This document shows positions 24,821-25,577 of a DNA stretch of 64,000 nt, in pieces. Origin of the DNA: an uncultured Ectothiorhodospiraceae bacterium (GTDB lineage Bacteria; Pseudomonadota; Gammaproteobacteria; UBA9214); the NCBI GenBank assembly GCA_964443845.1, contig CAYUFA010000001.1:47025-111024 (forward strand), in the 5' to 3' direction. The position numbers and the translations under genes were made by a program. The notes under the pieces are model-generated. The model saw only the letters and a list, made by a program, of their open reading frames with translations, ran no database searches and was not told the origin of the DNA. The stretch's first letter is position 1. The number at the start of each line of letters is the position of its first letter.

Positions 24821-25139
24821 CGCTGCAACGTCCTCTTCGATCACAGTCCCGGCATGGACCGGCACACGGGGACGCTTCCACGGCCGGAGGGCACCCCGTC
24901 CCGCCCGAGGACGGATCCTGGTCGGACCGGGTTCCGGGAATCCATATGCCCCGCCATGAAACGCCTGTTTGCGCCCCAAAACACCAAAACAACAAATTGA
25001 TATTTAAAACAAAAAATAAACCGGTAACAATTTGTTAATTTAGCTATTGCTTATTTAAGCGTATACTTATATATTATATATCGTCCTCGCTAGGGACCAG
25101 ATTACAAACAAATTTTGCACTAACGAACAGGAGAACGAA

Positions 25140-25499
25140 ATGAAAACTCTCGCAACTGTACTGACCGCGGCCACGCTGGCCATCGCCTCCACCGCTGCTT
25201 CCGCGTGGGGCTGGGGTCCGTTCGGCAACAACGGTTACAACGGCTACAACGACGGCTGGGGTGACGGCTGGGGTGACGGCTCGGGCGACTTCAACTTCAA
25301 CATGAGCGGTGGCGGGCACGGCTACGGACACGGCTACGGTCGTGGCTATAACAACTACTACGGCTACGGTGGCTATGGCCCGTACGGCTACGCTCCTTAC
25401 GGCGGTTATGCCCCGTATGGCGCCCCGTACGGGTATGCCCCGTATGGCGCCCCGGTTGCCCCGACGGCACCGGCGGCTCCGCAGCAGAGCACCAAGTAA
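25140..25499 (+). CDS. Secreted glycine/tyrosine-rich repeat protein resembling sulfur-globule envelope proteins (Sgp)
   Basis: The signal peptide [22 protein letters not shown] is followed by the low-complexity G/Y/W/P repeats GWGDGWGDG and [18 protein letters not shown] strong AGGAGA RBS and an unusually AT-rich 150-bp upstream region (24990–25139) precede it. Confidence 0.55.
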
Positions 25500-25526
25500 C
25501 CCGGTCTGACAGGCCCGGAAAGCCGG

Positions 25527-25554
25527 ACGGGGGACCGCAAGGTCCCCCGTCTTT
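25527..25554. terminator. Rho-independent terminator hairpin between the convergent sgp-like and arsR-family genes
   Basis: Stem ACGGGGGACC, loop GCAA, stem GGTCCCCCGT, followed by CTTTCAT. Confidence 0.6.
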
Positions 25555-25577
25555 CATACCCGGTGTCCGGACCGACC

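Follow-up and report, generated by a model that had tools for sequence, protein, structure and literature searches.

How is the synthesis of a sulfur globule coat protein controlled, and do the regulator genes that lie beside its gene take part in that control? The question is raised by a locus in a 64,000-nucleotide stretch of DNA (here called the window; positions 47,025 to 111,024 of contig CAYUFA010000001.1, assembly GCA_964443845.1) from an uncultured Ectothiorhodospiraceae bacterium, where a gene for a small secreted protein of the sulfur globule protein family, sgp, follows an extremely AT-rich tract and faces an operon with a gene for an ArsR-family regulator. The best explanation overall, which we hold with moderate confidence, is that sgp is a globule-coat gene under a repressor of the BigR/YgaV type and that it would be derepressed by sulfane sulfur. 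An original prediction made from the DNA letters had proposed a sulfur-globule-like protein with strong regulated expression and possible regulators among its neighbours, and its claims are taken up below where the evidence bears on them.

The sgp gene, its product and its promoter

Knowledge of sulfur globule proteins goes back to the 1990s, and sgp transcripts respond to sulfide. Proteins of the SgpA/B type are repetitive, rich in Gly and Tyr and small, about 8.5-13 kDa, a range that takes in both the precursor and the mature form described here. The sgp gene (25140..25499, forward strand) starts with ATG and encodes a 119-residue precursor of 12.2 kDa, with positions 25140-25205 specifying the signal peptide and 25206-25496 the mature protein. 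The signal peptide was called by inspection, from its n, h and c regions and the A-S-A motif of a Sec signal: the N-terminus consists of MK, a 16-residue hydrophobic core and ASA before W, and cleavage at that point gives a mature protein starting with WGWG. A Sec-type signal peptide is kept in all close homologs. The mature protein of 97 residues (10.1 kDa) is rich in glycine (29.9%), tyrosine (17.5%) and proline (10%), has no cysteine, and contains the repeats GWGDG (twice), GHGYG (twice) and YAPYG (three times). It matches Pfam PF17228 (SGP, sulphur globule protein) with 63.1 bits (E 4.5e-17; cutoff 26.7 bits) over profile positions 2-91 of 93. NCBIfam holds no model that matches it. Among about 5.8 billion proteins searched, 82 homologs were found; 79 have PF17228, and the few with a source name go by 'sulfur globule (family) protein' or 'sulfur globule protein CV1'. 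The exact protein is absent from this collection, its closest full-length match being 57% identical. The ordered motifs and the (Y)APYG tail align between Sgp and its close homologs, which also share the signal peptide, and this speaks against a PF17228 match through composition alone. A local Sgp hidden Markov model (HMM) finds a single sgp copy within the window, and the GC content of the coding sequence (65%) is native.

Sgp is therefore almost certainly a member of the sulfur globule protein family, assigned at the level of PF17228, and the reading of the original prediction, which drew on the signal peptide and the GWGDG/GYAPYG-type repeats, is upheld by the strength of this match and by the 79 homologs that share it. 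As such, Sgp is a divergent new member of an already well-known family, and the protein itself is ordinary. Kümpel et al. 2023 describe sulfur globule proteins as Sec-exported structural proteins of the periplasmic globule envelope, with SgpA of 13 kDa, SgpB of 12.6 kDa and one to six sgp genes per genome (PMC10386293). It is probable that Sgp likewise functions as an envelope protein of sulfur globules, to which it would localise.

The intergenic tract 5' of sgp (24975..25139) holds the promoter, two operator-like repeats and the 5' leader. Its GC content is 24-29% (29% for 24980-25139, 24% for 24975-25085), and the lowest-GC 100 bp of the whole 64 kb starts within it, at 24979, with 21%, about 6.7 standard deviations below the mean of 64.2% (standard deviation 6.3%); the runner-up 100-bp interval has 31%. 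The original prediction had put the upstream region at about 25% GC against 65% for the genome, which is essentially right. At orthologous sgp promoters the local GC falls to 0.20-0.30, against 0.48-0.60 for their contigs. The tract is unlikely to stem from a horizontally acquired AT-rich island, since the GC of the coding sequence is native and synteny at the locus extends over genomes of 0.48-0.64 GC. Phased A-tract curvature was set aside, as the spacing of A-tracts within 24978-25020 is irregular.

The promoter and transcription start are predicted from cross-species conservation. Alignment of five species-level orthologs gives an invariant TTGCTT, a 17-nt spacer, TAT(T/A)(A/T)T, six bases, CGTC(C/A) and AGGAG. 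In the window these correspond, on the forward strand, to the -35 hexamer TTGCTT (25047..25052), which is invariant in the window and in L007, L008, L009, L002 and L090 (L-numbers denote the contigs or metagenome-assembled genome (MAG) loci of relatives that were compared); the -10 hexamer TATATT (25070..25075), which orthologs replace with TATTAT or TATACT at the same distance; a CGTCC block six nucleotides after the -10 (25082..25086), the predicted transcription start region; and a Shine-Dalgarno AGGAG (25129..25133) six nucleotides 5' of the ATG, of which GGAG is kept in orthologs. The CGTC(C/A) block is kept in the ortholog alignment and in most metagenome sgp promoters, and recurs at a second promoter of the window (31283-31287). 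The whole pattern is also found at both sgp copies of a Sedimenticolaceae MAG and at 26-34 metagenome sgp promoters, the 34 having been selected on TTGCTT and so not being independent evidence for the -35. A simple consensus scan for sigma70 promoters and terminators called neither at sgp; its thresholds shut out TTGCTT (3/6) and a short U-tract, and cross-species conservation was used instead. No Rfam family was found in 24800-25700.

Between the convergent sgp and arsR lies a hairpin terminator common to both (25525..25552), with a 12-bp stem of 11 Watson-Crick pairs and one G-U pair, a GCAA loop, and weak U and A tracts on its two sides. The hairpin alone has a dG of -27.0 kcal/mol, and the surrounding 81 nt reach -47.4 kcal/mol, with z = -5.1 relative to shuffled sequences. 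The stem is followed only by UCUUUCAU, which has no run of at least five U. As the orthologous hairpins have an A-tract before the stem and U6-U8 after it, the copy in the window is, on this comparison, an eroded version. The perfect hairpin of the original prediction thus stands, and its strong terminator does so in part, given the weak U-tract and the negative scan. Strong regulated expression from an AT-rich promoter, also proposed there, has indirect support in that the tract, the sigma70-like promoter, the AGGAG and the terminator are all kept in orthologs.

Variation among the homologs of Sgp was also observed. Three of them (P0016, at 2116-2697 of L006, and P0058 and P0072) have a C-terminal Lys/Glu/Gln-rich helical extension of about 100 residues, and the extended sgp of L006 lies just 3' of a tRNA-like sequence and near a DsrE-family gene. 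The Sedimenticolaceae MAG (L090) has two identical sgp copies about 4 kb apart (1062-1370 and 5001-5309), with near-identical promoters that differ by one base in the -35 and with identical terminators; this pair is a recent duplication or the product of gene conversion. In L087 and L088 (about 1-10400), distant PF17228 genes lie inside a conserved same-strand cluster in the order RND exporter, two hypothetical genes, sgp, DUF4412/XYPPX protein, ParA/MipZ-like ATPase, DUF302 and dynamin-like GTPase. These sgp genes have neither the AT tract nor the operator, and the exporter recalls one beside sgpD in Allochromatium vinosum.

Operator-like repeats and the neighbouring ArsR-type regulator

A pair of inverted repeats, each 14 bp long and with the pattern T(T/A)AG-N6-CT(T/A)A, extends over the sgp -35 and the spacer; the two are 16 bp apart. 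Repeat 1 (TTAG-CTATTG-CTTA, TTAGCTATTGCTTA; 25040..25053, forward strand) overlaps the -35, and repeat 2 (TAAG-CGTATA-CTTA, TAAGCGTATACTTA; 25056..25069, forward strand) fills the -35/-10 spacer and abuts the -10. The strict motif T(A/T)AG-N6-CT(A/T)A occurs three times in the 64 kb, two of these at the sgp promoter, and in L007, L009, L002 (three copies, 16-bp spacing), L006 and L090 all strict copies at the locus lie within sgp promoters. Repeat 1 is in the same position in L007, L009 and L002 and in a relaxed form in L008; repeat 2 of L002 has a matched change in both arms (TTAG...CTAA). Shuffles of the AT tract give at least two sites in 0.035% of cases (probability 0.00035). The register holds three perfect copies in many metagenome orthologs; at the place of the third one the window has a perfect 13-bp palindrome, TAACAATTTGTTA, at 25026-25038, which may be a diverged third site or the site of another factor.

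The NolR-type consensus (A/T)TTAG-N9-A(T/A) (PMC12445080) fits repeat 1, as TTTAG-CTATTGCTT-AT at 25039. The core operator of SqrR, ATTC-N8-GAAT (bioRxiv 10.64898/2026.05.15.721447), is absent from 24975-25139, and the putative operator was therefore assigned to the BigR/YgaV/NolR type and not to the SqrR type. The BigR-box pattern used here was deduced from the sequences of blh and bigR-like promoters and of E. coli ygaVP.

The same architecture was sought in metagenomes with the pattern TTGCTT-N2-3-TWAG-N6-CTWA-TATWNT, and the gene 3' of each of 120 matches was classified. In contigs below 0.44 GC, 59 of the 61 matches were unclassifiable background. In contigs of at least 0.44 GC, 26 matches lay 5' of PF17228-type genes of several subfamilies and six more were sgp-like at contig ends; nine lay 5' of genes for Blh-like metallo-beta-lactamase (MBL) hydrolases and four 5' of autoregulated BigR/YgaV-like ArsR genes (ILC...YC), with single matches 5' of DsrE-like and SulP-like genes among others, and two left unclassified. 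The genes blh and bigR constitute the classical BigR regulon (PMC5823870, PMC4018554) and played no part in designing the query. The Blh-like metagenome genes have the promoter TTGCTT-(TTAG-N6-CTAA)-TATAnT; canonical blh/bigR promoters favour the half-sites TTAG/CTAA, and the sgp spacer sites are mostly TAAG/CTTA.

Two further promoters have a related layout. That of E. coli ygaVP, TTAGAGTTTGCTTA-AT-TTAGAAAATACTTA, has a strict copy that encloses TTGCTT and, 16 bp further on, a second one; both are placed at the transcription start, 28 bp 5' of the ATG. This repeat region has been footprinted by YgaV, and sulfide relieves the repression through a C31-C98 tetrasulfide (PMC9774250). On a Sphingomonas paucimobilis plasmid the same skeleton is found at an MBL-hydrolase promoter, which diverges from an unannotated ArsR-like open reading frame (ORF) followed by a TauE exporter gene. 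The metagenome scan, ygaVP and the Sphingomonas promoter, taken together, lead us to conclude that the repeats at sgp probably form an operator of the BigR/YgaV type, to which such a repressor would bind.

The scan also returned promoters of this kind at other genes. In five high-GC contigs (L096, L165, L163, L208 and L190) an operator-bearing promoter lies 5' of chromate-transporter-family, DsrE-like, SulP-like and HlyD-like genes, which are candidate further members of a BigR-type regulon. In L129, L130, L149, L150 and L153 the same skeleton precedes genes for small secreted Asn/Gly/Ser-rich proteins and for a 295-residue Gly/Asn/Tyr-rich protein; the small secreted proteins match the Sgp HMM weakly (E 1e-5 to 1e-7), and these proteins are possibly further types of globule coat.

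A candidate for the repressor is encoded next to sgp. The arsR gene (25578..25910, reverse strand) specifies an ArsR-family regulator of the BigR/YgaV/SqrR dithiol type, which matches Pfam PF01022 (HTH_5; E 1.4e-13) and, among solved structures in the PDB, those of NolR, BigR, YgaV, HlyU and SqrR (E from 2.5e-17 for NolR to 5e-12). Its identity to E. coli YgaV and to autoregulated BigR-like proteins is 42-45% (43.5% over 85 residues for YgaV). It has only two cysteines, C34 and C100, which correspond in the alignments to the sensing pair of BigR, YgaV (C31/C98) and HlyU (alpha2 and C-terminal helix). In 19 orthologs both cysteines and the recognition helix, GTSQSN(V/I)SQHL, are without exception kept. 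The cysteine pair of SqrR is C41/C107, with the same spacing of 66 residues as in ArsR. This spacing also equals that of C50/C116 in SoxR of Hyphomicrobium denitrificans (PMC10451225). ArsR is the sole DNA-binding protein in the conserved cluster around sgp, and arsR adjoins sgp not only in the window but in L002, L007-L009, L125, L101, L117, L156, L158, L161, L189, L195, L197 and L200, at least 15 contigs altogether with a GC of 0.48-0.64; L125 and those from L101 to L200 were recovered with the promoter pattern. The suggestion that the ArsR neighbour could regulate sgp has thus gained support, both from the dithiol type of the protein and from the BigR/YgaV-type architecture of the promoter; whether this particular protein would bind there as the sgp repressor is, in our judgement, evenly balanced.

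We propose the following mechanism. The sgp gene would be transcribed as a single-gene unit from the sigma70-type promoter TTGCTT-N17-TATATT in the A/T-rich tract and translated from the strong AGGAG, with the shared hairpin ending both convergent transcripts. Without sulfane sulfur, one or more reduced dimers of the proposed repressor, the ArsR encoded 80 bp 3' of sgp, would occupy the two repeats, block the -35 and -10 and shut out RNA polymerase. When sulfide is oxidised, persulfide or polysulfide would bridge Cys34 and Cys100, and the repressor would leave the DNA. The derepressed A/T-rich promoter and the strong ribosome-binding site would then allow high-level synthesis of the Sgp precursor when sulfur needs storing, and the precursor would be exported by Sec and assemble on periplasmic sulfur in what would be a sulfur-oxidising gammaproteobacterium.

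Several observations weigh against this mechanism and have to be set beside the alternatives. The kinase-REC/PAS-ArsR unit, in which arsR is joined to genes for a hybrid histidine kinase and a REC-PAS response regulator, is found in Thiocapsa roseopersicina, Halochromatium and other genomes (L010-L015) with no sgp beside it, and several operator-bearing sgp paralogs (L127, L129, L144 and L153) have no arsR within several kb. Another BigR paralog could therefore regulate sgp: Sgp and its operator would be as described, the repressor would be a BigR/SqrR paralog encoded elsewhere, and the adjacent ArsR, with its kinase and REC-PAS partners, would control something else, its position beside sgp in one clade being historical. 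The different half-site preference of blh/bigR and sgp promoters noted above fits this alternative. We nevertheless regard it as unlikely, given the conserved adjacency of arsR and sgp in contigs of 0.48-0.64 GC, the place of ArsR as the one DNA-binding protein of the cluster, and its recognition helix, SQSNVSQHL, which matches those of NolR, HlyU and autoregulated BigR-like proteins. The geometry of the E. coli promoter is also not identical, its TTGCTT being at the transcription start and not at the -35, and the authors of the YgaV study read their site by analogy to ATTC-N8-GAAT (PMC9774250), which is absent at sgp.

Other difficulties concern the motif itself, which is short and A/T-rich and whose conservation is in part that of the -35 and -10. 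At six sgp loci that are more distantly related (L087-L089 and L213-L215) both the AT tract and the motif are missing, so that control through this operator would be specific to a clade and not common to all sgp genes; the idea that tract and operator are a trait of all PF17228 genes was rejected on these six loci. It could accordingly be argued that sgp is essentially constitutive and very strong, that the AT tract is an UP-element or an easily melted promoter, with the repeats a by-product of A/T richness and promoter conservation, and that the flanking regulators are unrelated. The consensus scan called no promoter or terminator, the low-information motif behaves as background in low-GC contigs, and the A. 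vinosum sgp genes are reportedly expressed also without reduced sulfur (Prange and colleagues, 2004), all of which would suit a constitutive gene. The paired arm change of repeat 2 in L002, the fixed 16-bp register of two or three copies, the low shuffle probability, and the recurrence of the architecture at ygaVP, blh and bigR-like promoters outside the design of the query argue otherwise and make constitutive expression decidedly improbable. A final difficulty is that no dsr, sox, sqr, fcc or other sulfur-oxidation genes were found among about 40 ORFs of the 64-kb window, so that the case for sulfur storage by the host rests on its relatives. With the low-complexity sequence of Sgp and the absence of an NCBIfam model, this could speak for a Gly/Tyr-rich structural protein of the periplasm or cell surface that is unrelated to sulfur storage and matches PF17228 by composition. 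We consider this very improbable, as the match, with a score over double the cutoff, takes in 90 of the 93 profile positions and the ordered motifs align with those of homologs; moreover, the relatives that share these neighbours are sulfur oxidisers of the Chromatiales type, one homolog adjoins a DsrE-family gene, L090 is labelled Sedimenticolaceae, and the promoter architecture is shared with sulfide-detoxification operons. The constitutive promoter and the protein unrelated to globules both fit the evidence less well than a globule-coat gene under a BigR/YgaV-type repressor.

The gene cluster, its host and a second promoter

In the order of the cluster, p259 and p132 are read leftwards, sgp rightwards, and arsR, the REC-PAS gene and the hybrid kinase gene leftwards again. 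A metagenome relative of about 53% GC has this full order, with identities of 79% for ArsR, 82.5% for REC-PAS, 66% for the kinase, 64% for p132 and 49% for p259, as have three MAGs (L007-L009), and in six more contigs p132 or p259 lies 5' of sgp and the contig ends before arsR. The REC-PAS gene (25987..26841, reverse strand) belongs to the arsR operon and encodes a single-domain response regulator with Pfam Response_reg and PAS matches. The hybrid histidine kinase gene (26838..29258, reverse strand) is the first of the kinase-REC/PAS-arsR unit, and its product has an unassigned N-terminal sensor region of about 400 residues followed by HisKA, HATPase_c and REC domains. L007-L015, Thiocapsa roseopersicina and Halochromatium among them, have all kept this unit. 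An sgp gene beside it was not found in Thiocapsa, Halochromatium, an Ectothiorhodospiraceae MAG and the others of L010-L015; the next gene in these, where readable, is spermidine-synthase-like and is followed by amtB/glnK-type genes, as judged from N-terminal sequences only. The unit is older than its arrangement with sgp.

On the other side of sgp, and divergent from it, p132 (24404..24814, reverse strand; start TTG at 24814 or GTG at 24838) encodes a stand-alone receiver-fold protein with a degenerate active site. It has no Pfam match, Response_reg included, but a comparison with REC by hhalign gives a probability of 88% (E 2.8e-6), a single-sequence AF2 model has (beta-alpha)5 topology (pLDDT 68), and the top 50 Foldseek matches of this model are essentially all receiver (CheY-like) domains, such as those of Spo0F, DivK, KdpE and PhoP. 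The profile alignment places Glu at the phospho-acceptor Asp (VIVAEFNF) and FPV at KP, with loss of the conserved Lys. Since it has no Response_reg match, has Glu in place of the Asp and has lost the Lys, p132 is classed as a pseudo-receiver. Orthologs of 60-72% identity adjoin sgp. The original prediction had called this flank degenerate and receiver-like, which is correct on these grounds, and its labels for the other flank (ArsR, REC-PAS and hybrid kinase) agree with the Pfam domains. For REC-PAS, the kinase and p132 as possible regulators, the observed link to sgp is conserved synteny. Between the probable p132 start and the AT tract, positions 24840-24975 have 72% GC and small inverted repeats CGTCC-N7-GGACG, so that the divergent p132/sgp intergenic region is split sharply into a GC-rich and an AT-rich half. 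The remaining conserved member, p259 (23565..24233, reverse strand), is secreted and CarboxypepD_reg-like, with a weak match to PF13620 (E 3.3e-6; 27.8 bits, under the 32.3-bit cutoff), and its orthologs in the cluster are 48-64% identical.

Orthologs of REC-PAS at 65-88% identity are confined to Chromatiales-type genomes, namely Thiocapsa roseopersicina DSM 217, a Halochromatium MAG, a Chromatiales MAG, an Ectothiorhodospiraceae MAG and uncultured Gammaproteobacteria MAGs; below this range the similarity is that of receiver domains in general. As no identical genome is present in the species-representative collection, the source is a distinct species. Elsewhere the window carries flagellar genes, motAB, plsC, msrA, lipAB, hemH and genes for glycogen phosphorylase, glucose-6-phosphate dehydrogenase, lipopolysaccharide glycosyltransferases and signalling proteins. 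Among the relatives, L001 and L003 have sgp genes and promoters identical to those of L002 in a second arrangement, in which a gene for a 346-residue outer-membrane-type protein (weak Phenol_MetA_deg match) separates sgp from the place of arsR, apparently a case of strain-level variation within a single population.

The third strict copy of the motif in the window lies in a second promoter with the same skeleton, TTGAGT-ATTTAAGCATTTTCTAA-TATACT-AGACAT-CGTCC (31283..31321, reverse strand). The copy, at 31299, has the form TAAG-N6-CTAA and is placed in the N17 spacer, and the layout is nearly superimposable on that of the sgp promoter. The gene 3' of it (30226..31044, reverse strand) encodes a secreted PGAP1-like alpha/beta-hydrolase, with Pfam PGAP1/Abhydrolase matches. 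In the syntenic contig L125 the full pattern, TTGCTT-AT-TAAGTATATTCTTA-TATACT, lies 5' of a homologous hydrolase gene, and in L144 promoter, sgp paralog, hydrolase homolog and plsC follow one another on one strand. The hydrolase may belong to the same regulon as sgp and is possibly a globule-related factor. The 250-nt leader of the hydrolase gene was considered as a decayed second sgp and rejected, as it gave only a weak match of 14 residues and the HMM was negative. Close to this promoter, 31290-31940 is the second most AT-rich region of the window, with a possible promoter TTGACG(31487)-N17-TAATTT, an ORF for a charged, helical-looking protein of 90 residues that has no Pfam match (31617-31889, forward strand), and 3' of this ORF a textbook terminator, CCCGCCCAGCCTGGCGGG-T8, at 31916-31940. 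A wider reading, which we offer tentatively and hold a little less likely than not to be right in full, is that, in a widespread clade of marine and freshwater Gammaproteobacteria that form globules, several sgp paralogs are direct targets of the module's persulfide-sensing BigR/YgaV-type ArsR, encoded beside one sgp locus, with the hydrolase in the regulon as a globule-associated factor not recognised before.

Proposed regulation of globule coats and comparison with known systems

The literature library searched yielded no paper linking sgp genes to regulation of the ArsR, BigR or SqrR type, and none giving a regulator or operator for sgp; the wiring of an sgp gene to an operator of the persulfide-sensor type appears to be unreported. 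If the wider reading given above is true, it would provide the first defined regulator and operator for sgp genes and would couple coat synthesis to intracellular sulfane sulfur. If confirmed, the proposed mechanism would extend the persulfide-sensor paradigm of BigR, YgaV, SqrR and SoxR from enzymes of detoxification and oxidation to the building of a storage compartment, and the combination of promoter pattern and PF17228 would be a signature by which sulfide-inducible globule genes could be found in metagenomes. The value of the locus lies in a specific and testable regulatory hypothesis and not in a new kind of element, and it supplies for this a defined promoter, a 30-bp tandem operator, a candidate repressor with two cysteines and a small predicted regulon of sgp paralogs and a secreted hydrolase.

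The closest counterparts of Sgp itself are SgpA and SgpB (CV1 and CV2) of Allochromatium vinosum, which are likewise small, Sec-exported, Gly/Tyr-rich, repetitive, free of cysteine and monocistronic, belong to the same Pfam family, and have reported sizes of 12.6-13 kDa against 12.2 kDa for the precursor here. Unlike A. vinosum, the host here is an uncultured lineage with Gammaproteobacteria MAGs as its closest genomes, and the globule association of Sgp is predicted. SgpD of A. vinosum (Alvin_2515), which has been studied as an mCherry fusion, is encoded beside two-component regulator genes, and sgpD is induced 28-fold by sulfide (PMC10386293); this locus is a precedent for a sulfide-regulated sgp gene with neighbouring signalling genes. 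SgpD differs in being a proposed coiled-coil protein without Gly/Tyr repeats of the PF17228 type, no regulator or operator has been defined for its gene, and the neighbours of sgp here include an ArsR-type dithiol regulator.

Among the regulators, NolR of Sinorhizobium (PDB 4omy) is the best-scoring solved structure (E 2.5e-17), with the helix SQSALSQHL against SQSNVSQHL in the ArsR described here. However, it has Asp at the position aligned with C34 (ilDsl), the alignment ends before C100, and it regulates nodulation genes. SqrR of Rhodobacter capsulatus and SoxR and sHdrR of H. denitrificans are persulfide-sensing ArsR repressors with cysteines 66 residues apart that are released by sulfane sulfur, as proposed here. 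Repressors of this type control genes of sulfide or thiosulfate oxidation, in the case of SoxR and sHdrR the sox and shdr genes (PMC10451225), and R. capsulatus, the host of SqrR, has no Sgp proteins. In the library searched, an sgp gene was not reported as a target of any of the three. E. coli YgaV has kept both cysteines and acts at two repeats 16 bp apart with TTGCTT in the first, as at sgp; the ygaVP repeats span roughly -10 to +20 and the sgp repeats -42 to -13, and in contrast to the system proposed here YgaV controls its own operon and respiratory genes in an organism that makes no sulfur globules. BigR of Xylella fastidiosa and Agrobacterium tumefaciens, encoded in the blh-bigR operon, is a repressor released on oxidation of its cysteines by sulfide or polysulfide (PMC5823870, PMC4018554), and has the ArsR/SmtB winged helix and the same two cysteines as ArsR here. 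The target of BigR is a sulfur dioxygenase and sulfite-export operon; the proposed target at sgp is a structural globule-coat gene, and the ArsR that would act on it is not autoregulated from the sgp operator but is encoded in one operon with a kinase and a REC-PAS protein.

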